DNA of 64,000 nt from Eledone cirrhosa (taxonomy: Eukaryota), in assembly GCA_964016885.1 (NCBI GenBank), contig CAXHJY010001471.1:1-64000 (forward strand). The letters run 5' to 3'. Below, in pieces: positions 2,287 through 58,209 of this stretch. The notes beneath the pieces are model-generated. The model had not been told where the DNA came from, ran no database searches, and was given only the letters and a program-made list of their open reading frames with translations. Each line of letters starts with the position of its first letter. Positions within the stretch are counted from its first letter, which is position 1. The translations under genes were made by a program, and so were the position numbers.

Positions 2287-2332
<46 letters not shown>

Positions 2333-2347
2333 GATAGATATAGATAT

Positions 2348-2673
2348 GTTTCTTTATTAGCCACAGGGGCACAAAAGAAGGGGACAAATAGAAAGGGGGA
2401 AGTTTACATACAATAAAAACGTGTAAAATATTATCACAAATGCAATTTAAAAAATTAGTCGATTTTCCCCAATAGAGGGAGACAGTTTATATGGGTAACA
2501 CATACCCCCCGAAAAAATGTGCAACCCTCATCTCCAGGAGTACGAAGAGTTTGTACTCCTTTCCTCTCCTCCTCCTTTTCCTCAACCTACAGGCTGATAT
2601 AGAGAGAAGGCCCATTCACTCGGACCATTCTCGCCATTTTCACCCACCTTTCATAAAACTTGCTGGGGTACAG
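2348..2673 (-). mobile_element. 5'-truncated 3' fragment of Tx1-type family B
   Basis: Near-identical to 36157-36480. Follows TAGATAGATA; candidate TSD TAGATAT at 2341-2347 and 2674-2680. Confidence 0.9.
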
Positions 2674-19091: not shown

Positions 19092-19278
19092 TAATAATTG
19101 TTTCTACTTTTGGCACAAGGCCAGCAATTACCCAGTGCATAACTGGTACTTTATTCTATCGACCCCGTAAGGATGAAAGGCAAAGTTAACCTCGGCGGGA
19201 TTTGAACTCAGAATGGCAAGAGCCGTAACTCTATGCGTCAAAGCATGGCGTCCAATCCACCGCCAATCCATCGCCCTA
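19092..19278 (-). mobile_element. tRNA-derived SINE
   Basis: Reverse complement of the 9324 family. Confidence 0.88.
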
Positions 19279-19301
19279 TAAAAGATAATAACAACAACAA
19301 C

Positions 19302-19870
19302 GGCATAGAGTTACGGCCCTTTATGATCTGAGTTCAAATACCGCCGAGGTTAACTTTGCCTTTCAACCTTACGGGGTCGATAAAATAAAGTACCAGTAAT
19401 GCACTGGGGTCGTTTTAATCGACTTTCCCCTCCCCATACTAGAAATCATTAGGCGGTGGATTGGCAGTATCGGTAGAGGGTCGGACGCCATGCTTTGAAG
19501 CATAGAGTTACCTCCCTTTATGATCTGAGTTCAAATCCCGCCGAGGTTAACTTTGCCTTTCATCCTTACGGGGTCGATAAAAGAAAGTACCAGTAATGCA
19601 CTGGATAATTGCTGGCCTTGTGCCAAAAGTAGAAACAATTATTATTATTATTATTATTATTATTAAGGGCGGTGGATTGGCAGTATCGGTAGAGGGTCGG
19701 ACGCCATGCTTTGAAGCATAGAGTTACGTCTCTTTACGATCTGAGTTCAAATCCCACCGAGGTCGACTTTGCCTTTCATCCTTACGGGGTCGATAAAATA
19801 AGTACCAGTAATGTACTGGGTAATTACTGGCCTTGTGCCAAAAGTAGAAACAATTATGATTATTATTAGT
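19302..19870 (+). mobile_element. Three tandem tRNA-derived SINE copies
   Basis: Copies start at ~19302 (5'-truncated), 19451 and 19667; (ATT)n spacers. Confidence 0.9.
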
Positions 19871-20712
19871 AGTAGTAGTAGTAGTATATGAACATTTTTA
19901 TTTGTAGGGCTAGATCTGACATCATCTTTTTGTTTCAGTTTGATAATCTCCTTACTATGTAACTTTACATGAAACAACTGTCAGATTAGCGTCCTTGTAT
20001 TCAAACATCTTAATCATAAGATGATGATTTGGCTGAGAAGTTAGAGAAGGAGTGGGAAACCTGCAGTTTTAAGGACACATAAGGCCTTCTGCAAAAAGCA
20101 CATAGTTCGAAGGCAAAACTTCATGCTTGAGTGTATTCTTGCTGATTTCATTTTATTTAAAGTTTAACTTTTCAGTTAATTATGACTCGTAGAAAAACCT
20201 TTCTTTGTTTACGTTTTTTTTTAGCAATATTTCGTAAAATAATTTCTAGTATGCGAAAATGTTAACAAAAGCTGATTCAGCAGTCAGCTTGACAGCCGAA
20301 ATACGTAGCACCAACAATTATCACTACCATTACGACAGCAACAGTGACAATAACAACGACCCCCGCATCTTCGGTGAAAGAAGGCATTCGACCCCCAGCA
20401 ACCAGCCTTGCAGCCGAAATAGGTATCGGTATCAACTACCACTACCATTAACAAGAAGAAACCAACTCCAGCATCAGTGACAATAACAACCTTTGGGTCA
20501 TTCCGCTGTCAATAAACCCCTGTTTTATTTTTGTACATTCATCCATTCATTCATTTATTTATTTGCTAACTTTCTACATTCGTGTGTGTGTCCCTCCATG
20601 CACCCCCCCCCCTCCCTTCTCTTTTATCTTGTCTTCTGTCACCTCCATATCTGATGTAGGTGAGCTATGAGGCCTCACTCATACCAACACTTTCCCTTCC
20701 ACCCACGTACAG

Positions 20713-31184: not shown

Positions 31185-31214
31185 TCTGTGTATAGGTATG
31201 TATACATGTATCTA

Positions 31215-31225
31215 GACAGACAGAC

Positions 31226-31294
<69 letters not shown>

Positions 31295-31306
31295 GATAGA
31301 TAGATA
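31215..31306. repeat. (GACA)3(GATA)14 AATA (GATA)5; left boundary of the Tx1 array
   Basis: Units counted directly. Confidence 0.95.
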
Positions 31307-31530
31307 AATTTCTATTTATTTGCCACGAGGGCACAAAAGAAGGGGACAAATACAGTGGGGGAGTTTACATAAATCGAGTAAAGAAAAAAGGAATAACAAT
31401 AATAATATAATAATAAAAAGTCCTCAAAAGGGCGTGTTCGGGATTGCACATACCCCCGAAAAGTGTGCAACCCTTTTCGCGGGGGAAGCCCAGAGAGGAG
31501 GCGCTCCCCCTTTTCTCTTCACTTCTTCAC

Positions 31531-34500
31531 CTACAGAACAATGTAGAGAGAAGGCCCATTTACACGAGCCATTCTCGCTTCTTTCACCCACCTTTCATAA
31601 AACTGTCTGGGGCCAAGCACTTCTCTCTCCATCCTGATCCTTCTTCCGAAGTGGTATCGAAAGAAGTAAACCAGGTGATGGCCGGAGAGAAAGTCACCCG
31701 ACCTCAGACCTTTCAGGCGCGTCCACCACACAACCTCTTTCATCATGGCTATTATGCACAGAAAGACCGCCTCTGCTTCGTTTCTGAAGGGAGGCGGCGG
31801 CTTGATGTTCACCACAGACTCGGCGGTTAATCGAATCGGCGCCACACGCGACAGCAGTCGTTCGACGTAGCCCCACAGATCGGCAACGCCCGGGAAGTGT
31901 ACCAGTGCATGCGCAACGGTTTCCTCGTCGCGCACGCATCTGGGACAGATCTTTTTCGCTGGATCCCTGCCCGGGCGCCCGTGTCTGTAGAGCTTTTCTC
32001 GAACGGGCAGAGCCCCCCGGTAACACTGCCAGGCTAGGGACCTCTGGAAGTTGTCCATGGGTCCCGGGCCGAAAGTTCTACCGAACAGGCTGGCCAGTTC
32101 GTCCTCCTCCATGCCTAGCGACTCTCCAAGGGTGTCGTCGCCCCTGCTAGCCACCAGCCCTCTATAGAATGTCGAGGTGGATTCTCCACTGAAGTCGGGT
32201 CCGCTTGCCAGATAGCCGTGAGCGCCTGGGCACACTCGGTGTGCCAGTTGCCCAGTTTTCTCGGTCTTTGCTTCACCCAGGATTGCAGCTCGGTGAGCGA
32301 GACGAACTGTGGGAAGGCTCGCCTCACAAACGGGGCCCACACCGGCTGACCGGTGAGGAATACCTGTAGATGCCGTAGCCTCAATGCGTGCCTACGCATC
32401 AACATCCACGGCATATCCAGCCCTCCTTTCGAAGGGTGCTGGCAGCAGATGGATCTCCTCACCATGGGAGGCCGCTTCTTCCAGAGGAACTGGAAGAGCA
32501 TGCTTTCCATGATGGTGATCTTTTCCTTGGGGCAAGGCACCACGGTCAGGCGGTAGCAGATGACGACCTTTCAGTGATAGTTTGCACTTGGCCCACTTCT
32601 GGGTCAGCGCAAACACCCTGCTCGTCACCTCGCCCCAATTCTTCTCCACCTGGAGGTCCGGTCCGAACCAGACCCCGAGCAGCTTCACCGGGCCCTCCGT
32701 CCACCGCCCGACGACACCGTCTAACGGCATCGGTTTGCCCCTCCACGTTCCGAGTTGCAAACCGACTGACTTGTCCCGGTTCAGCCTAGCCCCCGTCAGC
32801 CTTTCGTATTCCTCCAGTAGGGTGGCGATCGCCCCGATTTCCGAGGCGTCCGCCACCATTACTGTTACGTCGTCGGCATAGGCCGAGACCGCTTTGTGCA
32901 ATCCCGGTTCCAGGGGTATGCCCCGCAGCAACTCCAACTTCCGCAGCAGTGGCTCGAGAGTCAATACGTACAGAAGGGAGGAGAGGGGGCACCCCTGTCT
33001 GATGGACCGGGTGATTTGAAACGGCTCCGAGAGGTAGCCGTTTACTTTAATCCTAGAGTAGATGTTGCCACTGTGGATGGCAGAAATCCAGCCCCTGAAA
33101 ACGGGTCCGAAGCCCGCCGCCGCTAGCACCGCATCCAGGTAACCATGGTCGACCCTATCGAACGCCTTAGATTGATCCAAGTTGATCAGGGCCCCACCAA
33201 AGCCGGGTTCGTTGCCAACCCTCTCTATGATGTATCGCATGAGGTGGAGGTTGTCGTGAATGGACCTGGACGGGATAGCGCATGTCTGCGCGTCTCCCAC
33301 CAAACCACCCACCACAAGCGCCAACCTCTTCGCCAACACCTTGGCCAAAATCTGTAACTCTGCATTCAGCAGAGTTATGGGCCTAAAGTTACTTAAGTCG
33401 TCCCCCTTGCTCTCGTTCTTCCTCACTAGCGTGACCACGCCCTTGGTCACAGAACAGGGAATTCTCCCGTTCTGTTGCCAGTTGCAATAGACAGCCTCGA
33501 GGAGTTCGGAGAACAAGACCGGCATAGCTAAATAAAGTTCGTATGGTAGACCATCGAGACCCGGAGATTTGCGTCTGCTGCATTGGCTGAGCGCTTCCCC
33601 GATTTCAGTGGCTGTGATTGGCCTTTCGCAGCACTCCGCTTCGCCGCTCGAAAGACGCGGTAGACCGTCGAGGTATGGACCGAAGTCCACATCCCCGTCC
33701 GGCCCCCCGCCCCCTCCGAACAGTCGAGCAAAGTGCCTTTGAAAGGCCTCGCACATCCGCTCAGGTTCAAGGATCACCCGTCCATCCTGGTCTCGCAAAG
33801 ACCGAATGGTGGATTTAATCCCACTCTTGGCTTCTGTCACGCGGGCCCAGCTAACAGCTTTGGTCCCCTCGTTTCCTAAAGCACGTATTTTACTTCGGAC
33901 AACGCAGCCTTCGTGCTTCGCGTCAAAGAACTGGCTCAACGCCGTTCTCGCCGCTAACACTCTGGCTACGTCTCCGCTCCTAATCGCCTCTTCTAGTTTA
34001 TCTGTTAACTCCCTTTCCTTCCTATTTCTATTCGCCGCTAGTTCCTTACTGTAACCTATCGAACTTACTCTAATCTCTCTCTTTAGAGATACCCACCACC
34101 TACTGTTGACGATCGCTCCCGTCAACCGCATCTTAACTAAGCTACTAATCCGGTTCCTGTAATCTTTCTTTGCCGGCAAGGACAAGTTCATCTTCCAGTA
34201 ACCGGGACCCTGTCTATGCGTTCTATCAAGGTTGACCACGCAGGTCACTAATTTGTGATCTGAATAGCCAACCATGATCAATTCTGGACAACTAAATACG
34301 TCCCTATCCTTACTCCTAACCAAAATCCTATCTAGGTACGATCTAGATTGTCCACTGCGGTTTGCCCAGGTCCAGGTTGGCGCAGTTGGACAATCTAGTC
34401 GAAATCTATCGACCAGGTCGAATCGATCGAGTAACCCCTTGAGGCTGCTACACCCCCCTCTATCGGGACATGCCCCTGCATAGTCCCAACGCGCATCTAG

Positions 34501-34940
34501 GATTCCATTCCAGTCCCCCACTAAAAGCAGGGAGCGCGACGTTCCTAGAAAAGTCTCCAGACGCTGGAAGAAGTCGGCTCTTTCAGCCCCGAAGGGGGCA
34601 TAAAGACCGACCAGTCTGAAAGCCCCGCCTTCGCCGCCTCCGACGTCCAGCACCAGTAATCGACCCCCCGGGTCCGAGTGAACAATCTGTACGTCGAGAG
34701 CCAGACGTTTATCCAGCAGTACCGCAACTCCACCCCCCCCCCGCCTCCGGGTTGACAGAGAGATGCGTGCATCTCAAAGTCATCGAAGGCGGGAGCCAGC
34801 TGTCGCACGCTGCTGATCCGACTCTCGCAAACAACCATCACATCTATACTTCGTGACCTGAGGTCACTTAGTAGCTTTGCTTGCTTCCAAGCTGAGCCCA
34901 GGCCACGCGCGTTCAAACAGCCAACTCTCAATTGATCTAT
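31531..34940 (-). pseudogene. ORF2 (APE endonuclease, RT, C-terminal zinc finger) of copy A1, frameshifted
   Basis: LNARG, GDWN, YLDR, SDH, WKMN; KSPGLDGLP, FRPITLLN, LDQSKAFDRV, RQGCPLS, AYADD; KGGL.MP; CPRC..EET..H. This motif set is Tx1/L1-like. Confidence 0.92.
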
Positions 34941-35923
34941 TTTGGTGTTGAAAGTGAAGAAAGAAAAGCACCTACCTCTCCGGGTTGTGTAATTTCCATG
35001 GCGTCAGGTGTGTTGGGTGGAGGGATGTTTTGTGGTGGTGTGGGGGTGCCCGAGTGTGGTTGGGTTGGGGTGTTTGGAGTTGTGTCAGGGAGAGGGGAGG
35101 TTATGGGGAAATCTTTCAAGAGGACGCGATTTAACGGTTTTAAACAGATGCGATCCGGGATTTGTGCTATTCTTTCGGGCCTCATTTGGAGTAGTAGGTC
35201 GAGGCCCATTCCCAGGAACGCATCTCCGGATGCCTTCCCCATTGACAGCACTGTGTCCTCGCCCATGTCTATGAAGCCAGCAATAGCCCACCAGAAGTCC
35301 ATTGTGGGTAGCATTGTTTGTATTTTTACTCTCTGTGTTCTTCTACCCATGTAGGAGGGATAGAAGCTGTATGTTGTCGATGAGAGTGGGCTTAGGGAAA
35401 GCTTCTGCGCCGTTTCCTTGTCTTTTGTTAAGACCGAAATGCTGCCATAGAGTCGGTCCTTTCGTATGAAGAGAATATTCTTCATATAGTCTTTTAGGAC
35501 CAACTCTATCTCCATTTGGCTGGGCTGTGCTGGCTTTCTTGTTTGGTTTAGGATTGTTCTGAAGAGAACTGTGTTCTCTGTTCTCGCTTTCTTGAATTCT
35601 GGGGGGGAGTTAATGGAAAACATTCCATTCTCCCCCAAAACAATGTGTTTCTTTGCTTCGGCCAGTTTTTCTCTGGCGGCAGTTAGGTCTATTGGTGTAT
35701 ATGTTATGGACTGTTTTGTTTTCTGGGCGAAAGTTGCCTTGTTGTTATTTGTATTATTATTTTCTGTTTGTTTGTTTTCCGTTTGCTCATTTTCCGTAAC
35801 ATTTGTTTTTTCATTTTCCTTGTTTGTTTCGTTGTCTAATTTTGTTGTATTTATTTTTTGTTCTTCAGACTTGGGGGGCGTGGCAGAGCTAATGGCAGAC
35901 ATGTCTGCCATCTTTTCCGCCAT
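34937..35923 (-). CDS. ORF1 of copy A1 (~800-bp deletion removes the zinc knuckle; remaining ORF open)
   Basis: 328-aa ORF; compared with A2, the segment equivalent to ~49255-50059 is absent at ~35146. Confidence 0.8.
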   Translation of the reverse strand: MAEKMADMSAISSATPPKSEEQKINTTKLDNETNKENEKTNVTENEQTENKQTENNNTNNNKATFAQKTKQSITYTPIDLTAAREKLAEAKKHIVLGENGMFSINSPPEFKKARTENTVLFRTILNQTRKPAQPSQMEIELVLKDYMKNILFIRKDRLYGSISVLTKDKETAQKLSLSPLSSTTYSFYPSYMGRRTQRVKIQTMLPTMDFWWAIAGFIDMGEDTVLSMGKASGDAFLGMGLDLLLQMRPERIAQIPDRICLKPLNRVLLKDFPITSPLPDTTPNTPTQPHSGTPTPPQNIPPPNTPDAMEITQPGEVGAFLSSLSTPK

Positions 35924-36394
35924 GCTGCCAAGAAAGAAATTTTACAGCAAAATAGATATTTATTTTACCCCCTAAAAAGGGGGTAAATGTAAAAATGTTT
36001 CCCTAAATAACAGGGGTTATTGTTCCAAATGTGTTGCACTGAAAAAGTTATCTGGTACTTACTATAGTAAGGGTTAATTCCGATGGAATAGCGGAGCCGA
36101 TGTGAAGCGTGTCTTACTCTATCTATCTAGATAGATAGATAGATAGATAGATAGATTTCTTTATTAGCCACAGGGGCACAAAAGAAGGGGACAAATACAA
36201 AGGGGGAAGTTTACATACAATAAAAACGTGTAAAATGTTATCACAAATGGAATTTAAAAAGTTAGTCGATTTTCCCCAATAGAGGGAGACAGTTTATATG
36301 GGTAACACATACTCCCGAAAAAAAATGTGCAAACCTCATCTCCAGGAGTACGAAGAGTTTGTACTCCTTTCCTCTCCTCCTCCTTTTCCTCAAC

Positions 36395-39300
36395 CTACAG
36401 GCTAATATAGAGAGAAGGCCCATTCACTCGGGCCTTCTCGCCACTTTCACCCACCTTTCATAAAACTTGCTGGGGTACAGCACCTCTCTCTCCATCCTGA
36501 TTCTTCTTCCAAAGTGGTATTTGAAAAAAAGAATCAGTTGTTGGCCGGAGAGAAAGGTGTCTGACCTCAGCCCTTTCAACCTTGTCCACCATACAACCTC
36601 TTTCGCTATAGCTATCACACAAAGGAAAACCGCCTCTCCTTCATTTTTGAAGGAGGGTCGCGGTTTGATCATGACAATGGACTCGGTGGTCAACTGGATT
36701 GGTCCCACCCGCAACAATAGTCGTTCCACATAGCCCCACAGGTCAGTGACGCCCGGGCAGTGTATGAATGCGTGCGCGACGGTTTCTTCGTCTCGCACGC
36801 ACCTCGGACAGATCTTTTTTCCAGGGTCCTTGACCGGGCGCCCATGTCTGTAGAGCTTGTCTCGAACTGGTAGAGCTCCTCGGTAGCACTGCCAGGCCAG
36901 GGACTTTTGGAAGTTGTCCACCGGTCCCGGGCGGAAGGTCCTACCGAACAGACTGGCCAGTTCATCTTCCTCTACGCCTCGAGTTTCACCGAGCGCGTCG
37001 CCGCACTTGCTGCGGACCAACCCTCTATAGAATGACGAAGTGGAGTCTCCACTGATGGCCGGGTCCGCCTGCCAGAGGGCTGTGAGCGCCTGAGCACATT
37101 CGATGTGCCAGTCGCCCATTTTCCTCGGTCTTTGCTTGACCCAGGACTGCAGCTCGGTCAGCGAGACGAGTCGTGGGAAGGCTCGCCTCACGAACGGGGC
37201 CCACACCGATTGTCCGGTGAGGAATACGTAGAGATGCCGCAGCCTGAGCGCGTGTTTGCGCATCGTCAACCACGGCATCCCCAGCCCTCCGTTAGAAGGG
37301 TGTTGGCAGCAGATGGATCTTCTCACCAGAGGAGCCCGCCTCTTCCAAAGGAATCGGAAGAGCGCGCGCTCCATTTTGGCGAGCATTTTGGCTGGACAAG
37401 GCACGACGGTCAAGCGGTAGTAGATGGCGGACGCTATAAAAGTGTTCGCCACCTCCGCTCGACCTTTCAAGGATAGTTTGCACTCGGCCCACTTCTGGGT
37501 GAGTGCAAACACCTTGGCCGTCACTTCGTTCCAGTTCTTCTCCACCTGGAGGTCCGGACCAAACCAGACCCCGAGCAGCTTTACCGGTCCTTCCGTCCAG
37601 CGTCCGACGACGCCATCGGAAGGCATCGTCTGCCTCTCCACGATCCGAGTTGCAAACCGATGGACTTGTCCCGGTTCAGCTTCGCTCCTGTGAGACTTTC
37701 GTATTCCTTCAGTAAGGTGCCGACTTCCTCGATTTGCGAGGCACTCGACACCATTACTGTCATGTCGTCGGCGTAGGCCGACGCCGCTTTCCGCAGTCCC
37801 GGTTCCAGAGGGATGCCCAGCAATAGCTCCAGCTTCCGCAGTAGTGGCTCAAGAGTCAGTATGTACAGAAGGGAGGAGAGAGGGCATCCCTGTCGAATGG
37901 ATCGCGTAATATGGAACGGCTCCGAGAGGTAGCCGTTCACCTTGACCCTTGAGCAGATGTTGCTGTTGTGTATTGCAGCAATCCAGCCCCTGAACACGGG
38001 TCCGAAGCCTGCCGCCTCGAGCACCGCATCCAGGTAACGATGGTCAACCCTATCGAAAGCCTTAGACTGATCCAAGTTGATCAGGGCCCCACCGAAGCCG
38101 GGTTTACACCCTACCCTCTCTATGGTGTATCGCATGAGGTGGAGGTTGTCGTGTATGGACCTGGTTGCGATTGCGCATGTCTGCGCTTCTCCCACCAGGT
38201 TCTCGACGACAAGCGCCAGCCTCTTTGCCAACACCTTGGCCAAAATCTGTAACTCTGTGTTTAGCAGAGTTATGGGCCGGAAGTTGCCTATGTCATCCCC
38301 CTTATTCTCGTCCTTCCTGATTAGTGTGACCACGCCCCCGGTTACAGAACTGGGAATTCTCCCGTTCTGTTGCCAGTTGCAGTAGACCGCTTCCAGGAGA
38401 CTGGAGAATAAGTCCGGCATTGCTACGTGAAATTCGTAGGGTAGACCGTCGAGACCTGGAGATTTGCGTTTGCCGCATTGGCTCAGCGCATCCCCTATCT
38501 CAGTGGCTGAAATCGGCTTTTCGCAGAACTTTGCCTCGCTGTCCGAGAGTCGCGGTAGGCCGTCGAGGTATGGACCGAAATCCATAGCCTCTCCCGGCGT
38601 GCCGCTCCCCCCGAACATTTGAGCAAAGTGCCGCTGAAAAGCCGCACACATCTGCTTCGGCTCACGTATCACGCGTCCGTTTTGGTCCTTCAAAGACCCA
38701 ATCGTGAACTTGTTGCCACTTTTTGCCTCCGTCACTCGGGCCCAGCTAACAGCTTTGGCTCCCTCGTTTCCCAGAGCACGTATTTTGCTTCTGACAACGC
38801 AGCCCTCGTGATTTGCGTCGAAGAACTGGTCCAAGGCCGTTCTCGTTGCTAGCACGCTGGCTACGTTGCCACTTCTAATTGCATATTCTACTTTATCTAC
38901 CAGTTCCTTCTCGGTTCTATTTCTATCTAACGCTAATTCTTTACTAAAAACTATCGAGTCTAATCTAACTGCCCTCTTGAGAGAGTACCACCATCTGTTG
39001 TTGACAATGGCCCCTGTCAAGAGCTGTTTAACTAAAGTGCTAATCCGTCTACTGTAGGCTTTGCTTGTCGGTAACGACAAGTTCAGCTTCCAGTAGCCGG
39101 GTCCTTGTCTATGGGTTCTATCAAGGTTGGCCATGCAGGTCACTAGTTTGTGATCTGAATAGGCAACCATGAACATTTGTGGACAGCTTAACATGTCCCT
39201 ATCCTTATTTCTAACTAGAACCCTATCTAGGTACGATCTAGATGTTCCGCTACGATTACTCCACGTCCACAGTGTCGCAGTCGGAAAATCTAGTCGATAT

Positions 39301-39829
39301 CTATCGGCCAGGTCAAATCGGTCGATTAACTGTTTGAGGCTGTTACACCCCCTTTATCGAGACATGCTCCCACATAGTCCCAACGTGCATCTAGGATTCC
39401 ATTCCAGTCCCCCACTAAAAGCAAGGAGCGGGACATTCCCAGAAAAGTCTCTAGACGTTTGAAGAAGTCTGGCCGCGGAGTCCCGGATGGGGCATATGCG
39501 GCCACCAGCCTGAAGGCTCCACCTTCACTACCGTCAACGTCTAGGACCACCAGTCGACCCTCCGGGTCCAGATGTACTGTCTGTGTTACGAGGCCCAGGT
39601 GTTTCCGCAGCAAAACGGCAACTCCGCCCCCACCCCCCGGTTGACAGACAGATGCGTAGATCTCAAAGTCATCGAAGATGGGAGCCAGCTGTTGCTCGCC
39701 GTGGATCCTGGACTAGCAAATGGCTACCACATCCATACTGTGCGACCTGAGGTCGTTTAAGAGTTTGCCCTGTTTCCAGGGCATCCCCAGGCCGCGTACG
39801 TTCACACATCCAACTCTTATATTGGCCAT
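36395..39829 (-). pseudogene. ORF2 of family B (ATG at 39829, MANIRVGCVNVRG), with a stop and frameshifts
   Basis: Same APE/RT/zinc-finger motifs, split over the ORFs 39326-39613, 37581-39194 and 36424-37641. Confidence 0.9.
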
Positions 39830-39862
39830 GTTGGTGCTGAAAAGTTAAGAGAGGAAAAGAGA

Positions 39863-41760
39863 TCACTCACCCTTCGCCTCCTGGGGACCAGGCCGCACGA
39901 TTTCCATGGGGGTGTTGGAGGGGTTGTCTGGATGGGTGGTGGTTTCCGGCGGGGTGGGGATGCAGATGTTTGGTGGGGTGGGGTCTGGTGGGATGGGGGT
40001 GTCTGGGGTGGGGAGGCATTTGAGAAGGACGCGGTTGAGTGGTTTCACGCAGGAATTCCCCACATCCTTCTCAAATGTTTCTTTTAGGGACCTATAAGTT
40101 TGTATAGGGACCCTAATCAGTTTTAGGTTCAGTTTTTTGCTATTTTTGATAGAGTGGGCGAAAGTTTTCCCTTCGGGGAAAACCGAAGGTTCGTTCGTGA
40201 TGGTCTCCGTTAGTGTTTTGTTTTCAGTGTTTATGTAAGTGTAAGTGTAATTTTCTTGTGTTGTGTTTGTTTTTGTCTGTAGTTCTTGTGTGTGCTTTCG
40301 TTTTGTTGTAGGTATTTTGTTTTCAGGAGGTGGGGGTTTTGTTTGTGATATTTTTGTTGTTTGTGTTGGTGGTTGTATGTTTGTGGTAGTGTTTGCTGGT
40401 TTTTTGCTTTTGTGATATCTTTTCTTTCTTTTCGAGTGATGGGGTTCTCCCTCGTCTTCACTGGGTGATGGCGAGATAGCCTCATCTGTTGTATCGTCTG
40501 TGTGATTGGGGAGGGGTATGTCTTGGGGAGCTGTTGTGTCTGTATGTGATTTTGCAGTGGTTTTAGGTGGAGTGGGGTTGGGTGGGACTGTGTTTGTTGT
40601 GGTTATTTTTGTGTGTCGGTGGTGTTGTTGTTGTTGTGGTGGTGTTGGTGGTTGTGTTGTTTTGATGGGTGTCGGCAGAAGAGCCTTTTTTTGGTTCATT
40701 AGTTTAGGACAGGAAGCCCTCAGGTGACCCCTGCTAAAGCAATGGTAACATGAAGGCCGCCTACCCTCAACCGAAAGGTTTATGTAGGTGAGTCCGTCCA
40801 GGAGTATACGCTGTGGGATCATAGCTATTCGCTCTGGGCTCATTTGCACCAGAACTTCAATGCTAGTCCCATTGAATACATCTCTGGGGGACTTTCCTAC
40901 TGACAGTATTCTGTCTTCATCAAAATTGATGAAGCCGCACAGTATCCACCATATGTTCACCTTTGGTGTGACACTTGTGATTCTGATCTTTTGTGTCCTT
41001 TTTCCCATGTATGTAGGGAAAAAGGTGTACAGGTTGGATACAATTGGCGACACAGAGTAATTTTGGGCCGTCAATTGATCCTTCATGAGTACCGAAATAC
41101 TCCCAAAAAGTTTGCTTCTTTGAATGAATGCAATATCATTCACTGAATTTTTTAAAACCATTTCAATTTCTTTCTGTGACAATTGGACTGGTTTTCGGGT
41201 AGAATTGGAAACTGTCCTAAAAACTATCGTTTTGAGAGCAGTTTCCTTGCGAATTTCTACCGGAGAATTGATGCTGAAAGCATCATTTTTTTCGAAAGTG
41301 ACATATCTCTTAGCGTCCTTTAAAAGTTGTTCAGCATTTGTTATGTCGAGATATATCAATTCTTCTTTCTTTTGAACTTTCTCTGCAAAGGAGATTTTTG
41401 GTTTCTTTGTGGAATCCGTATTGGTGGTGTTGTCATTATTGTTGTTATTGTTGTTGTTATTCTTGTTGTCACCGATGTTGGTATCATCCGTATTTTCCTT
41501 GGTGTTGTTGTTGGCGTTGTCTTTATTTTTTTCTTTGCTGTTGTTATCATTGTTGCTTTCATCATCATTATTGGTTTTGCTGTTTTTTTGTTGTCATTGA
41601 ACTGTTTGGTGTCATTTGTGTTGTTTGGATATGAATTCGTTTTTTTATTTTCATTTTGTCTTTCCATCTCTATAGTATCTAGTGAAGAAGACGTTGTTGA
41701 CTGCGAGCTTTGTAGTCTTACCGCCTCTCCACCACCATTATCGTTGGACGCAGCGTTCAT
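39863..41760 (-). pseudogene. ORF1 of family B with CCHC zinc knuckle and Pro/Thr-rich linker, frameshifted near the N-terminus
   Basis: CYHCFSRGHLRASC; shares FSINSP, YMG.RTQ, VEGRRP and KPLNRVLLK with family A ORF1. Confidence 0.85.
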
Positions 41761-41978
41761 AACGTAATCAAAATTTTACAATATTTTTTCCAAGATTCGA
41801 TGGAGAAAAATTTTTTCAATGGATATTCCGCCCCTGTAGGGGGCGAAAATGAGTTGGCCCACCACCTGAAGGTCCAGACGGGTGGTCAAGTTACACAATG
41901 ATATAAAATTTAACTAAAAACTCACGTTTTTTTCTTACATAAATTAACGGAAACTTCTCCGCGAAGTGACACACGTCT

Positions 41979-42053
<75 letters not shown>

Positions 42054-45000
42054 TTATTTATTTGCCACAGGGGCGTACAAAAATGGTACATTACAAGACG
42101 TAACGGCGGGGGTTTTACATAAAAATATAACTTTAACATTAAACTATATATAATAAAATGACAATTGAAATCCCCAATAGGGGGGGGGGACGTTACTGCA
42201 GGGTTGTTTTACACCCCGTGGATAGAACAACCCTCAACACCAGGAACACGTTTTGTAGGTGTTCCTGTCTTCCCCCTGTTTATCTTCCTCAACCTACAGG
42301 TTTATATACAGAGAAGGCCCATTCACTCGGGCCATTTTCGTCACATTCACCCACCTTTCAGCGAATTTACAGACCCCTCTCTCTCCACTCTCACTTTCCT
42401 TCTGAAGTGGTACTTAAAGAAGGGGTTAAGTTGTTGTCCGAAGAGAAAGGTGTTTGCCCTTAGTTCTTTTAACCTCGTCCACCATATTACCTCTTTAGCC
42501 ATAGCCACCAGACAGAGGAAAACAGCCTCTGTTTCATTCTTAAATGAAGGCGGCGGGGTGATCCTCACGATGGACTCGGCTGACAACTGGATGCACCCCA
42601 CACGTGACAGTAGCTGTTCGATATAATTCCACAGGTCGGTCACCCCTGGGCACTGAACAATTGCGTGCAGAACGGTTTCGATGTCCTGCTCGCATCTTGG
42701 AAAGTCCTTTTGGCAGGATCTCTGCCAGGACGCCCGTGCCTGTAGATTTTGTCTCGAACTGGTAGATCTCCTCGGTAGCACTGCCAGGCAGAGACCTCTG
42801 GAAGTTATCCATAGGCCTTAGACGGAAAGTCCTCCCTAACAGACTGGTCAGTTCGTCCTCCTCGATGCCTAGAGTTTCCCCGAGAACGTCGTCGCACTTA
42901 TCCTCCACTAATCCCTTATAGAATGTCGAAGTGGAGTCTCCGCTGATTGCCGTTTCCGCTTGGTAGAGGGCTGTGAGCGCCTGAAAGCACTTGAGGTGCC
43001 AGGCACCCATTTTCGGTCTTCGCTTGACCCAGGACTGCAGCTCTGTTAGTGAGACGAGTTGTGGAAGAGCTTGTCTCACAAACGACAGCCACACCAGTTC
43101 ACCGGTCAGGAATACCTGGAGATGGCGTAGCCTCAGCGCGTGTTTGCGCATCATCAGACTCGGCATACGCAGCCCTCCGTTAGAAGGGTGTTGACAGCAG
43201 AAGGATCTCCTCATCAATGGAGCTTGTTTCTTCCAGAGGAACTTGAAGAGTAGGCGTTCCATTTTGGTGAGGTATTCGGGGGACAAGGCACGACTGTCAA
43301 GCGGTAGTAGATGACGGACGCTATGTAAGTGTTCGCCACCTCCGCTCGACCTTTCAGGGAGAGTTTGCGCTCATCCCCCCCCCTCCCCACACACTTCTGG
43401 GTGAGTGCAAATACGTTCGCCGTGACCTCGTTCCAGTTCTTGTCCACCTGGAGGTCTGGACCAAACCAGACCCCGAGCAATTTCACCGGTCCTTCCGTCC
43501 AGCGTCCAACGGCACTGTCGGAAGGCATGGGTTTGCCTCTCCATGTGCCGAGTTGCAAACCGACAGACTTGTTTGGGTTTAGTCTTGCTCCTGTCAACGT
43601 TTCGTATTCCTGTAAAAGGTTGCCGATTAACCTGATTTCCAAGGTTTTCGACACCATTACGGTTATGTCGTCGGCATTGGCTGACGCTACTTTCCGCAGT
43701 CCAGGTTCGATAGGGATGCCTTGCAACAGCTCCAACTTCCGCACTAATGGCTCGAGAGTCAGTACATACAGAATGGAGGAGAGAGGGCACTCCTGACTGA
43801 TGGAACGCATGATTTGGAATGGCTCTGATAGGTAGCCATTCACCTTGACTGTCGAGCAGATGCTGGTGTGCATGGCAGCGATCCAGCCTCTGAAGACGGG
43901 ACCGAAGCCTTGAGAACCGCTTCCAAGTATTGATGGTCGACCCTATCAAATGCCTTAGACTGATCTAAATTGATCAGAGCCCCACCGAAGCGAGGTTTAC
44001 ACCCTACCCTCTTTATGATGTATCGCATGAGGTGGAAGATGTCGTGTATGGACCTGGTCGGTATTGCACACGTTTGCGCTTCCCCTACCATGTTCTCGAT
44101 GACAAGCACCAGCCTCGTTGCTAACACCTTGGCCAAAATCTTTAACTCTGTTTTGAGCAGAGTTATGGGCCTGAAATTGCTTATCTCATCCCCCTTGTTC
44201 TCATCTTTCCTGGTGAGCGTTACTACGCCTCTGCCTACATAACTGAGAATCCTCCCGTTCTGCTGCCAGTTGCAGTAGACCGCTTCGAGGACGCCAGAGA
44301 ACAAGTAGGCCATGCCTATGTAAAACTCATAGGGTAGACCATCTAAACCGAGTGATTTGCGTTTCCCGCAGCGGCCTAGGGCATCTTCTATTTCGCCCGC
44401 TGTGATCGGCCTTTCACAGCTCTCTGCATACCTTCTCGAGAGTCGTGGTACGCCGTCGAGGTAAGAGCTGAAGTCCATCACCTCCCTCGACGTACCGCTT
44501 TGCCCGAACAGTTGTGCAAAATGCTGCTGGAAGGCCGTGCACATCTGCTTGGATTCAAGTAGAATGCGTCCATATTTGTCTTGCAAAGACCGAATTGTGG
44601 ATTTGTTGCCACTTTTCTCCTCTGCCACTCGGGCCCAGCTAACAGCTTTGGCTCCCTCGTTTCTTAGAGCACGTGTTCTACTTCTGACAATACAACCTTC
44701 GTGTTTCACGTTGATAAACTGGTCTAGTGCCGTTCTCGCCGCTAGCACGTCAGCTGCACTGCCATTCCTAAGTGCCTCTTCTACTTAAGCTACCAGTTCT
44801 TTTTCAGTTTTGTTTTTTTTCTAAAGCTACTTCCTTGCTAAATGCTATTGATTCCATTCTAATTGCTCTCTTGAGAGAGCTACACCACCTGTTGTTGACG
44901 ATCGCCGCCGTCAACTGGCACTTAACTAAGGTGTTAATCCGTTTACTGTAGCCCTTACGTGCCGGAAGCGACATGTTTAGCTTCCAGTATCCGGGTCCCT

Positions 45001-45309
45001 GTCTATGTGTTCTATCAAGGTTGACTACGCAGGTGATAATTTGAATAGGCAACCATATGCATTTGTGGACAACGTAATGTTTCCATATCATTCTGTCTAA
45101 TTAAAAATCTATCTAAATACGATCTAGAAGACCCAGTGTGGTTGCTCCACATCCACAGTGGCACACTTTGGAAGTCTAGTCGATATCTATCAGCTAGTTG
45201 GGATTGGCTGATAAGATTTTTGAGGTTATTACACCCCACCCCACCTCCTCTATTATCACAAGCTCCTACATAGTCCCAACGTGCATCTAAGATACCATTC
45301 CAGTCCCCA
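42054..45309 (-). mobile_element. Tx1/L1-type retrotransposon, family C, 5'-truncated within the endonuclease, more decayed
   Basis: ORF2 fragments 42294-45309 with many frameshifts; truncated at GDWN and joined to a GATA/GACA/GGTA tract at 45310-45413. Confidence 0.92.
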
Positions 45310-45348
45310 GATAGGTAGACAGACAGACAGGTAGGTAGGGCGGCAGAC

Positions 45349-45413
<65 letters not shown>

Positions 45414-45414
<1 letters not shown>

Positions 45415-48400
45415 ATTTCTATTTATTTGCCACGAGGGCACAAAGGAAGGGGACAAATACACAGTGGAGGAGTTTACATAAATCGAGTAAAGAAAAAAGG
45501 AATAACAATAATAATATAATAATAAAAAGTCCTCAAAAGGGAGGGGGCGTGTTCAGGATTGCACATACCCCCGAAAAGTGTGCAACCCTTTTCGCGGGGG
45601 AAGCCCAGAGAGGAGGCGCTCCCCCTTTCCTCTTCACTTCTTCACCTACAGAACAATGTAGAGAGAAGGCCCATTTACACGAGCCATTCTCGCTTCTTTC
45701 ACCCACCTTTCATAAAACTGTCTGGGGCCAAGCACTTCTCTCTCCATCCTGATCCTTCTTCCGAAGTGGTATCGGAAGAAGTAAACCAGGTGATGGCCGG
45801 AGAGAAAGTCACCCGACCTCAGACCTTTCAGGCGCGTCCACCACACAACCTCTTTCATCATGGCTATTACGCACAGAAAGACCGCCTCTGCTTCGTTTCT
45901 GAAGGGAGGCGGCGGCTTGATGTTCACCACAGACTCGGCGGTTAATCGAATCGGCGCCACACGTGACAGCAGTCGTTCGACGTAGCCCCACAGATCGGCA
46001 ACGCCCGGGAAGTGTACCAGTGCATGCGCAACGGTTTCCTCGTCGCGCACGCATCTGGGACAGATCTTTTTCGCTGGATCCCTGCCCGGGCGCCCGTGTC
46101 TGTAGAGCTTTTCTCGAACGGGCAGAGCCCCCCGGTAACACTGCCAGGCTAGGGACCTCTGGAAGTTGTCCATGGGTCCCGGGCCGAAAGTTCTACCGAA
46201 CAGGCTGGCCAGTTCGTCCTCCTCCATGACTAGCGACTCTCCAAGGGTGTCGTCGCCCCTGCTAGCCACCAGCCCTCTATAGAATGTCGAGGTGGATTCT
46301 CCACTGACAGTCGGGTCCGCTTGCCAGATAGCCGTGAGCGCCTGGGCACACTCGGTGTGCCAGTTGCCCAGTTTTCTCGGTCTTTGCTTCACCCAGGATT
46401 GCAGCTCGGTGAGCGAGACGAGCTGTGGGAAGGCTCGCCTCACAAACGGGGCCCACACCGGCTGACCGGTGAGGAATACCTGTAGATGCCGTAGCCTCAA
46501 TGCGTGCCTACGCATCAACAGCCACGGCATACCCAGCCCTCCTTTCGAAGGGTGCTGGCAGCAGATGGATCTCCTCACCATGGGAAGCCGCTTCTTCCAG
46601 AGGAACTGGAAGAGCATGCGTTCCATGATGGTGATCTTTTCCTTGGGGCAAGGCACGACGGTCAGGCGGTAGCAGATGACGGACGCTATGTAAGCGTTCG
46701 TCACCTCCGCCCGACCTTTCAGTGATAGTTTGCACTTGGCCCACTTCTGGGTCAGCGCAAACACCCTGCTCGTCACCTCGCCCCAATTCTTCTCCACCTG
46801 GAGGTCCGGTCCGAACCAGACCCCGAGCAGCTTCACCGGGCCCTCCGTCCACCGCCCGACGACACCATCTAACGGCATCGGTTTGCCCCTCCACGTTCCG
46901 AGTTGCAAATCGACTGACTTGTCCCGGTTCAGCCTAGCCCCCGTCAGCCTTTCGTATTCCTCCAGTAGGGTGGCGATCGCCCCGATTTCCGAGGCGTCCG
47001 CCACCATTACTGTTACGTCGTCGGCATAGGCCGAGACCGCTTTGTGCAATCCCGGTTCCAGGGGTATGCCCCGCAGTAACTCCAACTTCCGCAGCAGTGG
47101 CTCGAGAGTCAATACGTACAGAAGGGAGGAGAGGGGGCACCCCAGTCTGATGGACCGGGTGATTTGAAACGGCTCCGAGAGGTAGCCGTTTACTTTAATC
47201 CTAGAGTAGATGTTGCCACTGTGCATGGCAGAAATCCAGCCTCTGAAAACGGGTCCGAAGCCCGCCGCCGCTAGCACCGCATCCAGGTAACCATGGTCGA
47301 CCCTATCGAACGCCTTAGATTGATCCAAGTTGATCAGGGCCCCACCAAAGCCGGGTTCGTTGCCAACCCTCTATATGATGTATCGCATGAGGTGGAGGTT
47401 GTCGTGAATGGACCTGGACGGGATAGCGCATGTCTGCGCGTCTCCCACCAAACCACCCACCACAAGCGCCAACCTCTTCGCCAACACCTTGGCCAAAATC
47501 TGTAACTCTGCATTCAGCAGAGTTATGGGCCTAAAGTTACTTAAGTCGTCCCCCTTGCTCTCGTCCTTCCTCACTAGCGTCACCACGCCCTTGGTCACAG
47601 AACAGGGAATTCTCCCGTTCTGTTGCCAGTTGCAATAGACAGCCTCAAGGAGTTCGGAGAACAAGACCGGCATAGCTAAATAAAGTTCGTATGGTAGACC
47701 ATCGAGACCCGGAGATTTGCGTCTGCTGCATTGGCTGAGCGCTTCCCCGATTTCAGTGGCTGTGATTGGCCTTTCGCAGCACTCCGGTTCGCCGCTCGAA
47801 AGACGCGGTAGACCGTCGAGCAAAGTGCTTTTGAAAGGCCTCGCACATCCGCTCAGGTTCAAGGATCACCCGTCCATCCTGGTCTCGCAAAGACCGAATG
47901 GTGGATTTAATCCCACTCTTGGCTTCTGTCACGCGGGCCCAGCTAACAGCTTTGGTCCCCTCGTTTCCTAAAGCACGTATTTTACTTCGGACAACGCAGC
48001 CTTCGTGCTTCGCGTCAAAGAACTGGCTCAACGCCGTTCTCGCCGCTAACACTCTGGCTACGTCTCCGCTCCTAATCGCCTCTTCTAGTTTATATGTTAA
48101 CTCCCTTTCCTTCCTATTTCTATTCGCCGCTAGTTCCTTACTGTAACCTATCGAACTTACTCTAATCTCTCTCTTTAGAGATACCCACCACCTACTGTTG
48201 ACGATCGCTCCCGTCAGCCGCATCTTAACTAAGCTACTAATCCGGTTCCTGTAATCTTTCTTTGCCGGCAAGGACAAGTTCATCTTCCAGTAACCGGGAC
48301 CCTGTCTATGTGTTCTATCAAGGTTGACCACGCAGGTCACTAATTTGTGATCTGAATAGCCAACCATGATCAATTCTGGACAACTAAATACGTCCCTATC

Positions 48401-51034
48401 CTTACTCCTAACCAAAAACCTATCTAGGTACGATCTAGATTGTCCACTGCGGTTTACCCAGGTCCAGGTTGGCGCAGTTGGACAATCTAGTCGAAATCTA
48501 TCGACCAGGTCGAATCGATCGAGTAACCCCTTGAGGCTGCTACACCCCCCCCCCCCCTCTATCGGGACATGCCCCTGCATAGTCCTAACGCGCATCTAGG
48601 ATTCCATTCCAGTCCCCCACTAAAAGCAGGGAACGCGACGTTCCTAGAAAAGTCTCCAGACGCTGGAAGAAGTCGGCTCTTTCAGCCCCGAAGGGGGCAT
48701 AAAGACCGACCAGTCTGAAAGCCCCGCCTTCACCGCCTCCGACGTCCAGCACCAGTAATCGACCCCCAGGGTCCGAGTGAACAATCTGTACGTCGAGAGC
48801 CAGACGTTTATCCAGCAGTACGGCAACCCCCCCCCCCCCCCCCCCCCCCCACCTCCGGGTTGACAGAGAGATGCGTGCATCTCAAAGTCATCGAAGGCGG
48901 GAGCCAGCTGTCGCACGCTGCTGATCCGACTCTCGCAAACAACCATCACATCTATACTTCGTGACCTGAGGTCACTTAGTGGCTTTGCTTGCTTCCAAGC
49001 TGAGCCCAGGCCACGCGCGTTCAAACAGCCAACTCTCAATTGATCTATTTTGGTGTTGAAAGTGAAGAAAGAAAAGCACTTACCTCTCCGGGTTGTGTAA
49101 TTTCCATGGCGTCAGGTGTGTTGGGTGGAGGGATGTTTTGTGGTGGTGTGGGGGTGCCCGAGTGTGGCTGGGTTGGGGTGTTTGGAGTTGTGTCAGGGAG
49201 AGGGGAGGTTATGGGGAAATCTTTCAAGAAGACGCGATTTAACGGTTTTAAACAGGGGGGGGGCTCACGTCCTGTCTAAATTGTTCTTTTAAGGAACGAT
49301 AAAGGTCCAGAAGGACCTTTATCATTTTTAAATGGGTGAAGTTCTCTGTTGAGATAAAGTTTGGCCCTTCGGTCTGCACCAAAGGGCTATTGTTTATTAA
49401 TTTAAACAGTTTTTTGTTTTCTTTATTTATATATGTGTATTGCAATGTCTTTTTTTGTGATGCTGTCAATGTTTCGGAGAGGGGAGGCGCAGATTTATTT
49501 TTGTTTGTTGAGGGTGGGGTGTTTTTTATTGGAGTTGGTGTTTGTGTGTGGGTTATTTGTGGTGTGCTGGGTGTGTGCTTTCTTTTTTTTCTTTTAACTT
49601 GTCTGAAGGCTTCTCCTCCTTCTTCTTCAGAAGTTGGGGGAAACTCTTCAGCGCTAGGTGGGAGGGACGTCGTGTCTGGTTGTTTTATTTTTGCGGGAGG
49701 GGTAGATTTGTTGCTGTTTTTTCATTATTTGTTTGGAATGCGTTTTGTGGTGGTGGTGGTGCTGTTTGTGTCGTGCTTGTGGTTGGTAATGGTGGTGGTG
49801 CTGTTTGTGTTGGTGATGGTGGTGGTGATGTTTGTGTTGTGCTTGGTGGTGTTTGTATTTTGTTTGCTGTGTGTGGTATTAGTGTATTTTTGGAGGTGGG
49901 TGGTGTTGGTGTACTGTTTGTGGTGGGTGTGGGCAATAGTCCTTTTTGGGGGATACGTTTCGGGCAGTTAGCCTTAACGTGTTCCCTTTCCATGCATAAA
50001 TAGCATGCTGGTCTTCTCCCCTCTACAATTATGTCTATTGGGGTAAGGTCATCCAGCCAGATGCGATCCGGGATTTGTGCTATTCTTTCGGGCCTCATTT
50101 GGACTAGTATGTCGAGGCCCATTCCCAGGAACGCATCTCCAGTTGCCTTCCCAATTGACAGCATTGTGTCTTCGCCCATATCTATGAAGCCAGCAATAGC
50201 CCACCAGAAGTCCATTGTGGGCAGCATTGTTTTTACTTTTACTCTCTGTGTTCTTCTACCCATGTAGGAGGGATAGAAGCTGTATGTTGTCGATGAGAGT
50301 GGGCTTAGGGAAATCTTCTCCGCCGTTTCCTTGTCTTTTGTTAGGACCGAAATGCTGCCATAGAGTCGGTCCTTTCGTATGAAGAGAATATTCTTCATAT
50401 AGTCTTTTAGGACCAACTCTATCTCCATTTGGCTGGGCTGTGCTGGCTTTCTTGTTTGGTTTAGGATTGTTCTGAAGAGAACTGTGTTCTCTGTTCTCGC
50501 TTTCTTGAATTCTGGGAGGGAGTTAATGGAAAACATTCCGTTCTCCCCCAAAACAATGTGTTTCTTTGCTTCGGCCAGTTTTTCTCTGGCGGCAGTTAGG
50601 TCAATTGGTGTGTATGTAATGGATTGTTTTGTTTTCTGGGCGAAAGTTGCCCTGTTGTTATTTGTATTATTTTCTGTTTGTTTGTTTTCCGTTTGCTCAT
50701 TTTCCTTAACATTTATTTTTTCATTTTCTTTGTTTGTTTCGTTGTCTAATTTTGTTGTAATTATTTTTTGTTCTTCAGACTTGGGGGGCGTGGCAGAGCT
50801 AATGGCAGACATGTCTGCCATCTTTTCCGCCATGCTGCCAAGAAAGAAATTTTTCGGCAAAATAGATATTTATTTTACCCCCTAAAAAGGGGGTAAATGC
50901 AAAAATGTTTCCCTAAATAACAGGGGTTAGTGTTCCAAATGTGTTGCACTGAAAAATTTATCCGGTACTTACAATAGTAAGGGTAAATCCCGATGGAATA
51001 GCGGAGCCGATGTGAAGCGTGTCTTACTCTATCA
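45414..51034 (-). mobile_element. Tx1/L1-type retrotransposon, family A copy 2, full length
   Basis: ORF1 49045-50833 (CYLCMEREHVKANC knuckle) and ORF2 45646-49048, with frameshifts mostly at homopolymers plus a short deletion at ~47820. Confidence 0.93.
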
Positions 51035-51035
51035 A

Positions 51036-51056
51036 GATAGATAGATAGGTAGATAG

Positions 51057-51087
<31 letters not shown>

Positions 51088-51103
51088 GATAGATAGATAG
51101 ACA
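51036..51103. repeat. (GATA)3 GGTA (GATA)6 AATA (GATA)5 GACA; right boundary of the array
   Basis: Units counted directly. Confidence 0.95.
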
Positions 51104-51499
51104 CCCGAGCAATAGTAGCCGAAATAACCAAACTAACAAAAATCCTCTTGTTTATAAAAAGAGAAGACATTTTTTCAGACGTGAAGAAAAAGTAGAAAAA
51201 CTAAGGCGGAGAAGAAAGCTATATAGCTGTTGTATGTTTTATTATACGTCAGGCATCAGCAGCTCTAATGATTGGTTTGAAAGTCGACTGATGTCGATAG
51301 CAAAAGGTTTGTCTTCACAAGCAGCTGTTGATTACTACGTTGATAAATAGTTAATTCAGTGCGATCGTACACCTTTGCCCTGTACGTTACCTCATACATA
51401 AACACACACGAACACACACACACACACACACATACACAGGCAATAGTTTTCTCTATGTGTATGTCTCTCTCACATCCTCTCACTCTATCTCTCTTTGAA

Positions 51500-57467: not shown

Positions 57468-57649
57468 TACACAATAATCAAATATATGTTCAAATCATTT
57501 TATTGCTGACACGTTTCTTCCAAACTTTCGTTTGGAATCATCGGAGCACTACCAATGTTTGTACATATAATTAACCTCCTATTCAACTGTACTGACCTTT
57601 CCTGTTTATAGTTGTATTTCGTGTATACATAACTATAAATAATATTGTG

Positions 57650-57832
57650 AGTTGGCAGTATCGGTAGAGTGTCGGACATGCTTTCCAGCATAGTTATGTC
57701 CCTTTACGATCTGAGTTCAAATCCCGCCGAGGTTAACTTTGCCTTTCATCCTTACGGGGTCGATAAAATAAAGTACCAGTAATATACTGGAATAATTGCT
57801 GGCCTTGTGCCAAAAGTAGAAACAATTATTAT
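57650..57832 (+). mobile_element. tRNA-derived SINE
   Basis: Same family as 9324. Confidence 0.88.
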
Positions 57833-57865
57833 TTATATATATTCTTGCGAGTGTGTATATATGTT

Positions 57866-58209
57866 CGTTTTTATGAAAGGTGGGTGAAAGTGGCGAGAAT
57901 GGCCCGTGTGAATGGGCCTTCTTTTTACATAAGCCTGTAGGTGGAAAAGAGGAAGGAACGAGGGAGCACCCCCTCTCTGTGCTCCTGAGGAAAAGGGTTG
58001 CACACTTTTTTCGGGGGTGTGTGCGACCCCCCAAGGCGCCTCCTCTCTATTGAGGATTTTGTTACAAATTTTATTTTTTGTTATATTTTATTTTATTTTA
58101 TTTTTATATTTTGTTATTGCCTCCTCCTTATTGAGGACGCTTTTTTGTGTAAACTACCCCCTTTGTACTTGTCCCACTTTTGATGCCCTGGTGGCAAATA
58201 AAAGAAACA
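57866..58209 (+). mobile_element. 3' fragment of a fourth related Tx1-type family with 10-bp TSD
   Basis: Encodes FYERWVKVARMARVNGPSF; 3' UTR homologous to A/B/C; TATATATGTT at 57856-57865 and 58210-58219. Confidence 0.85.

Follow-up and report, generated by a model that had tools for sequence, protein, structure and literature searches.

TATC/GATA motifs as the probable insertion target of a high-copy LINE lineage in Eledone cirrhosa

How did four retrotransposons from three families come to lie head to tail within one (GATA)n microsatellite? The question is raised by the first 64 kb (64,000 nucleotides, hereafter the window) of an unplaced 98-kb contig of Eledone cirrhosa (CAXHJY010001471.1, in the 3.0-Gb assembly GCA_964016885.1), where long interspersed nuclear elements (LINEs) that we call A1, B, C and A2 alternate with GATA repeats. 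We put at about 0.8 the probability that a high-copy lineage of LINEs with an apurinic/apyrimidinic endonuclease (APE), likely of the Tx1 kind, inserts on one strand of TATC motifs, and that nicking of the GATA strand together with regeneration of the motif built this array. The basis for this reading is the protein domains, the enrichment of the motif in the flanks, strand bias, target duplications, the ages of the copies and repeat units of foreign origin ahead of full-length copies. The array is laid out as follows (ORF, open reading frame).

31213..31306, no strand: (GATA)n tract, the 3′ flank of A1 and outer end of the split microsatellite
31307..36125, minus: LINE copy A1 (family A), both ends present; ORF2 broken, ORF1 with a deletion of ~800 bp
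36126..36153, no strand: short (GATA)n tract separating the B 3′ end from the A1 5′ end; TAGA turn where A1 begins
36154..41978, minus: LINE copy B, full length; ORF2 from ATG at 39829, broken
41979..42050, no strand: (GATA)18 tract between the C 3′ end and the B 5′ end
42051..45308, minus: LINE copy C, 5′-truncated within the endonuclease domain, many breaks
45309..45413, no strand: C/A2 spacer, ~40 bp of degenerate 4-mer repeats and pure (GATA)n at 45345-45413
45414..51035, minus: full-length LINE copy A2 (family A); both ORFs broken, start ATG of ORF1 at 50833
51036..51101, no strand: (GATA)n tract at the A2 5′ end

Read in the direction of the elements, all of which are on the minus strand, the order is tract, A2, spacer, C, tract, B, tract, A1 and tract. 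None of the four copies has an unbroken ORF2. Copy B retains ORF1 as an open frame (39866-41593) with one CCHC knuckle, and A1 is without the ~800 bp of ORF1 that A2 has at 49255-50058. The Pfam domains RVT_1, Exo_endo_phos and zf-RVT are found in the array elements. Nucleotide identity is 96% between A1 and A2, 78-79% between A and B, 77% between B and C and 72-74% between A and C. These coordinates and identities bear out a first-pass annotation, made from the sequence alone, which had placed four co-oriented elements of three families here. Its remark that AATAAA leads almost directly into (TATC)n with no poly(A) holds at all four 3′ ends, each of which passes from AATAAA through a short purine run and two bases into TATC. 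The further statement that every junction is a GATA tract and nothing else needs amendment: all five tracts are present, but the C/A2 junction adds the degenerate 4-mers. The genome is microsatellite-rich. Runs of at least three TATC/GATA units cover 0.106% of 200 kb of arbitrary genome stretches, and five such tracts at the junctions are therefore not due to chance. The DNA just past the array (51104-51400, the right flank) is single-copy in the assembly.

Flanks across the genome and the target motif

Both ends were mapped for 94 copies outside the window, those closest to each window family; 42 are full-length, 47 truncated and five were dropped as recombined. The 3′ flanks of families A, B and C carry TATCTAT at +2 in 84 of 94 cases and GATA in none, and TATCTAT also stands at +2 in 28 of 30 copies of a position-ordered A subfamily sample. 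TATC at the 3′ end alone would equally fit a tail, so the 5′ side is needed for the test, and there the truncated copies provide it because they cannot carry the element's own leader. With a TATC flank defined by at least 11 of 12 matching bases, TATC is present on the 5′ side of 23 of the 47 truncated copies, TA on that of one and GATA on that of none. The same cut-off is passed by 22 of 20,000 background positions (0.11%), which corresponds to a ~440-fold enrichment at truncated 5′ junctions. Random 5′ flanks and random orientation within the tracts, two of the outcomes that the first-pass annotation had set against targeting, were thus not seen, the latter in view of the absence of GATA from both the 47 5′ flanks and the 94 3′ flanks.

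A 16-base 3′-end motif common to several families has 16,792 exact matches genome-wide (reversed control, 7). The next bases are TATCT in 12,994, TATATAT in 476 and ACTCTAT in 350; the remaining 2,972 matches lie outside these three classes. Since 476 copies run into TATATAT, TATC is not an obligatory tail. The rate of (TA)n use is 2.8% of motif matches, and 240 kb of background contains 8,502 TATATAT sites against 160 of TATCTAT. The label "GATA-targeting" given to these elements earlier therefore describes a strong TATC preference but not a strict one, as single TATCT[A/G]T-type motifs and, at a low rate, (TA)n are used too.

Duplications that begin within the motif (TATCT/TATAT) and include unique sequence were found at loci L021 (20 bp), L192 (21 bp) and L063 (15-19 bp), and further motif-starting duplications at L445 and L462 (16-18 bp), L186 and L201. 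The same single TATCT[A/G]T site is occupied in two copies of a dispersed repeat, once by family C (L062) and once by family B (L315). It seems that one TCTAT-type motif suffices for targeting, also at sites that are not in microsatellites. Truncated copies lie in tracts somewhat more often than the motif supply predicts (23/47 vs 46/160 sites, p 0.013). At L063, L156 and L042 the filled site has TA before TCTAT and the empty site is without it, and at L069 and L072 one extra unit is present ahead of the duplication at the 3′ junction. We infer from these junctions that the GATA strand is nicked immediately ahead of TCTAT and that the RNA ends with a few bases resembling the target.

Four copies (L442, L458, L463 and L464) sit at a border inside compound microsatellites, where TATC flanks them 5′ and (TA)n flanks them 3′, which suggests that bases upstream of the nick may also be read. 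Very short 3′-end fragments of ~10-20 bases occur inside TATC tracts (L036, L068, L210, L217 and L469), with a repeated 3′ end at L064; they are likely to reflect aborted or restarted reverse transcription. We also note a copy of another subfamily (L337, G000:C1:10,269,473-10,272,488) that runs into a third, short satellite with CTCTATA.

Imported leaders, family E and the choice of target

The 5′ flanks of full-length copies were rejected as a targeting test, because the TATC found there is likely in part imported with the element. (TATC)3 precedes all 30 family A 5′ ends, the window's own included. It also stands before the 20 family B 5′ ends that were located, of which 14 share a TCTC-type variant; ten of the 30 family B loci, having no match to the junction motif, were left out of this count. 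At L192 extra TATC units lie between the duplication and the element. Full-length copies thus likely bring part of the repeat along as a target-derived leader.

These observations can be assembled into a plausible insertion cycle. The endonuclease would nick the GATA strand immediately ahead of a TCTAT-type motif; this nick would prime reverse transcription of an RNA without poly(A) that probably ends in target bases (UA, sometimes with an extra UAUC), this target-derived end pairing with the primer. Cleavage of the second strand ~5-20 bp downstream would duplicate the motif, so that both ends of the insertion become new targets. Transcripts would start upstream of the element, inside the repeat; full-length complementary DNA (cDNA) would then end in target-like sequence and anneal to the tract, and precise full-length joins would be made mainly in tracts. 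Microsatellites would be favoured as the densest supply of motif and pairing partners. The earlier claim that the families share an endonuclease nicking the same GATA strand is in keeping with the strand bias and the duplications; the endonuclease may not be the sole determinant of the target.

A sister family, E, is 80% identical to B in nucleotides and resides in a 72-bp minisatellite (loci L341-L344, G000:C1:4,223,000-4,259,400, and L361-L411). Of the first 30 motif matches on contig C1, eleven belong to family E; six E copies lie head to tail in the minisatellite, and 28 of the 29 C1 copies listed fall within 31 Mb of the contig's start or 12 Mb of its end. Further E 3′ ends share one satellite phase (30/30), and further fetched copies are all full-length with the same 5′ satellite phase (20/20 for both). 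The 3′ ends are 100% identical on many contigs and the family is very young. In the E site TCTAT stands at the same distance from the element end as in the TATC families, and E likely follows the same cycle in a minisatellite that shares the TCTAT core. One E copy (L405/L377) is embedded in a satellite variant of 43 bp but directly preceded by about two canonical 72-bp units; no other junction points as clearly to an imported leader. In the trees E falls among the TATC families (E with A, B and a further family, F; 89/99). The tree favours a switch of E from a TATC target, but the approximately unbiased (AU) test does not reject the TATC families as one clade without E (AU p 0.109).

The hairpin of the L1 endonuclease has a role in specificity. 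The endonucleases of E and B are 82% identical, and the segment aligned with the human L1 hairpin is identical in both. In a different division of labour, the endonuclease would be loose and accept any TCTAT- or TATAT-like site, and target-derived RNA ends would mainly choose the site by pairing with nicked DNA; a family could then change target by acquiring new flanks, its enzyme staying the same. We regard this as possible but hold it only tentatively. It would account for the single satellite phase of E and the TCTAT core that E has in common with the TATC families, for the shared hairpin, and for the imported leaders and the use of (TA)n at 2.8%. On the other hand, ~18% of endonuclease positions differ between E and B, including the loop after the conserved Tyr (YAPFW in E, YAPSG in B); E 3′ flanks vary among loci from about base 10, so no long RNA 3′ extension is copied; and the single-motif insertions (L021, L062/L315) leave few bases to pair. 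The full version, in which the RNA of a Tx1-type lineage would carry the target choice and flank-derived ends would steer one TCTAT core to GATA (A, B and C) or to the 72-bp minisatellite (E), is doubtful. If it were true, targets would be switched and inherited via flanks, and a large part of the GATA tracts in the genome would be both exploited and created by the elements.

Several points weigh against insertion directed by an endonuclease with a TATC preference, the reading that we favour. As the predicted hairpins of B and E are identical, the enzyme alone may not explain the target. The flank sample is biased to young copies close to the window's own. Of the truncated copies, 24/47 are without a strict TATC at the 5′ side; some of these have short motifs or duplications and ~10 have neither. 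Whether the nick falls at +2 or at +4 from the element end is read from a handful of junctions (L063, L156, L042 and L069), which microhomology blurs. An empty or alternate allele was sought with the single-copy right flank, and none is present in the assembly.

Growth of the array and neighbouring features

Divergence from the family column majority is 4.04% for C, 1.34% for B, 0.68% for A2 and 0.37% for A1. C is also the most diverged of seven family C copies; it is the oldest of the four and forms the core of the array. A1 and A2 are 0.99% apart, and each is closer to copies elsewhere. The differing ages of the four copies fit stepwise growth; the array most likely grew by successive insertion, with the oldest copy inside and younger ones probably added on both sides. 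The proposal that each insertion regenerates its target, so that the array extends itself, agrees with these ages and has a precedent in the R1 element discussed below. Arrays of this sort are common in the genome, and mixed-family ones are found on C1 and C3 as well.

Local duplication, co-mobilisation on one read-through RNA or template jumping in a single event could also give such an array. Another element's 3′ end lies at most 120 bases upstream of 20/41 full-length but only 8/47 truncated copies (Fisher p 0.0025), and local duplication is suggested for the six-copy E array by a pair of identical spacers and by 99.8% identity between neighbouring copies. The window copies, however, comprise three families with a tenfold range of divergence, with A1 and A2 each closer to copies elsewhere, and a third of background tracts (3/9) are directly behind an element end already, a number too small to show an excess. 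A shared 3′ untranslated region (UTR) variant, tried as a private marker of a dimer, proved to be a 428-copy subfamily that is mostly not followed by A. We consider these routes improbable for the array in the window; local duplication likely adds to some arrays.

If the elements merely carried an RNA-encoded (TATC)n tail, as do CR1, L2 and RTE elements, insertion would be near-random and the elements would seed microsatellites. Nearly all 3′ ends do have TATC, even in copies without TATC at the 5′ side, and the extra unit before the duplication at L069 and L072 and the three of nine background tracts directly behind an element end also fit. As a sole cause the tail is contradicted by the ~440-fold enrichment at the 5′ side of truncated copies with its 23 to 0 strand bias, by motifs inside duplications and by the 476 copies that run straight into TATATAT; we judge it very improbable. 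A mis-join of long reads at GATA tracts, which an unplaced 98-kb contig with a 1,357-bp fold-back at its start might invite, is hardly credible given that junctions of these types recur on many chromosome-size contigs, that the four copies are distinct and that the right flank is single-copy.

Two related copies lie outside the array.

2320..2673, minus: solo family B copy, 5′-truncated; 3′ end in mixed TATC/TA, 5′ junction with ATATCT
57869..58190, plus: solo 5′-truncated copy of a related family; TATATAT site, 10-bp duplication

The fold-back at the contig start (1-1357) is near-perfect (99.6%) and may be an assembly artefact. A GC-rich region at 20600-23150 has broken frames, a YLDD motif, no Pfam match and a reverse transcriptase (RT)-like Atlas lead (RVT_1 in 22% of one cluster); it is probably another decayed element of the kind without long terminal repeats (non-LTR). 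Fragments of an unrelated APE LINE (Exo_endo_phos_2, RVT_1) are at 26466-28029 on the plus strand. A repeat of ~200 bp resembling a short interspersed nuclear element (SINE) occurs on both strands, in clusters and short tandem runs, at 4250-5017, 9306-9518, 19083-19880, 25595-26170 and 57647-57846. Where B, C, E and F have the ORF2 start ATG, 25 of 27 full-length family A copies have ATA (49050-49040 in the window), at a position that overlaps the stop codon of ORF1. A non-AUG or coupled start of family A ORF2 is possible.

Element class and relation to known systems

Natural unbroken ORF2s of ~1,145 amino acids were found elsewhere in the genome, among them L166:532-3975 (minus) for family A and L344:5698-9153 for family E. 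The best solved-structure match is human L1 ORF2p (E 3e-48, residues 7-858), with which the catalytic endonuclease positions align. Against human ORF2p the lineage scores E 1e-48, versus 1e-148 and 1e-177 for amphibian L1-like proteins. Copies have a fixed 3′ end and variable 5′ truncation (47/94), with duplications of ~5-21 bp in a subset. From its AP-like endonuclease, RT, C-terminal zinc motif and truncation pattern, the lineage is an APE-type non-LTR retrotransposon of the L1 group. It lacks the features of the vertebrate L1 clade proper, its ORF2 similarity being weak and its 3′ ends having no poly(A) run.

The closest named ORF2 relative, from Argonauta hians, is 63% identical. Trees were built from RT only (FastTree) and from endonuclease plus RT (EN+RT; IQ-TREE, 45 rows), and include no named Tx1L, Kibi or Koshi sequence. 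Together with an unnamed group of proteins 40% identical to it, the lineage makes up a deep branch (100/100). In the EN+RT tree the lineage falls beside fish elements and elements with U2 or 5S flanks, opposite vertebrate L1-like ones (94/94, just below the threshold for strong support); the RT-only tree has a weak backbone, in which long branches connect the lineage to L1. Metagenome relatives flanked by U2 small nuclear RNA (snRNA) or 5S ribosomal RNA (rRNA) sequence served as tree anchors (L231, L232, L236, L243, L244, L246 and L251); from these flanks we take them to be Keno-like and Mutsu-like. TATC repeats of at least four units were found at none of 80 metagenome relatives' loci, which are mostly 24-34% identical and many of whose contigs end early. 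The target is not widespread among these relatives, and nothing further follows from the 80 loci.

ORF1 of Tx1 elements has RNA-binding domains plus a CCHC knuckle. Here all five ORF1s have one C-x2-C-x4-H-x4-C, with Pfam zf-CCHC under its curated cut-off; an Atlas lead points to ZCCHC3-type RNA-binding domains at 0.90. A single-sequence fold model of ORF1 is poor (predicted local distance difference test score, pLDDT, 37), and no ORF1 homolog was found at E 0.001 among proteins of 341-1,087 amino acids. A target preference of the Tx1 type, for which PMC4494074 uses a rule of >20% of flanks, is evident in 77% of the 16,792 3′ ends, 49% of truncated 5′ ends and 30/30 in family E. The (TC)n or (TTC)n target of the Kibi/Koshi group is not used to any comparable extent, TC being present at 2/94 3′ flanks and 1/47 truncated 5′ flanks. 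Membership of Tx1 is likely, with moderate rather than firm support from these sequence comparisons.

The target-specific APE LINEs known so far are mostly low in copy number and distant from one another in sequence, which makes target change hard to study. The present lineage offers young families 72-85% alike, unbroken natural ORF2s and a split between GATA and a minisatellite, so that the question "endonuclease or RNA ends?" becomes testable by swaps. At least 13,000 GATA-linked 3′ ends and co-oriented arrays of 20-40 kb tie LINE activity to the genome's many microsatellites. The lineage could disturb GATA markers, and full-length insertion into a harmless repeat makes it a possible gene-insertion tool.

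Precedents exist for Tx1 elements that target microsatellites, for tandem arrays in which the target is regenerated and for transcripts that carry target sequence. The GATA target is apparently unreported; with it come a very high copy number, mixed-family arrays and an apparently recent target change among close sisters. No GATA/TATC-targeting Tx1 element is named in the titles or abstract openings that we found; Repbase and Dfam lay outside this search and the family may be catalogued there. The text of PMC4494074, in the portion available to us, does not contain "GATA" and gives TC, TTC, TTCC and TTTC as Tx1 microsatellite targets. Thirteen recently active L1-Tx1 families are described in Octopus vulgaris, with no target named in the corresponding part of that paper (PMC13282606).

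Kibi, Koshi and crocodilian Tx1 families target (TC)n, (TTC)n and (TTCC)n/(TTTC)n according to excerpts of PMC4494074 and PMC3812793. Like them, the families described here are APE-type LINEs in microsatellites and lie far above the >20% rule; unlike them, as compared by published targets only, they use TATC/GATA, which is not pure pyrimidine, and form their own deep branch. Relatives flanked by U2 snRNA (as for Keno) or 5S rRNA stand with the lineage in the EN+RT tree and away from vertebrate L1 (94/94), but are only ~30% identical to it, belong to separate subclades and have other targets. Tx1-Mar, Tx1L and satellite-targeting Tx1 elements, whose target is another repeat family (excerpts of PMC4494074), resemble family E in its minisatellite; E differs in being a very close sister (~80% in nucleotides) of microsatellite-targeting families. 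The telomeric-repeat elements SART1/TRAS and the microsatellite elements Waldo, Mino, Dong and Togen likewise insert into short tandem repeats (targets of the last four are listed in excerpts of PMC3812793 and PMC4640811), but they are of other clades and use other repeats. SART1Bm needs at least three TTAGG units (excerpt of PMC7265360). It requires a poly(A) tail, whereas none is present here, and the arrays here are dispersed and not telomeric.

A parallel for array growth is Drosophila R1, which forms tandem arrays in 28S ribosomal DNA (rDNA) by insertion into the target duplication (excerpt of PMC2718515). Full-length transcripts of melanogaster-type R1 are inferred to carry upstream target sequence that anneals at the 5′ junction (same excerpt), and we likewise propose target-duplication arrays and target-carrying transcripts. 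R1, however, is of the R1 clade and uses one rDNA site, whereas the present lineage has tens of thousands of dispersed motifs and builds mixed-family arrays.

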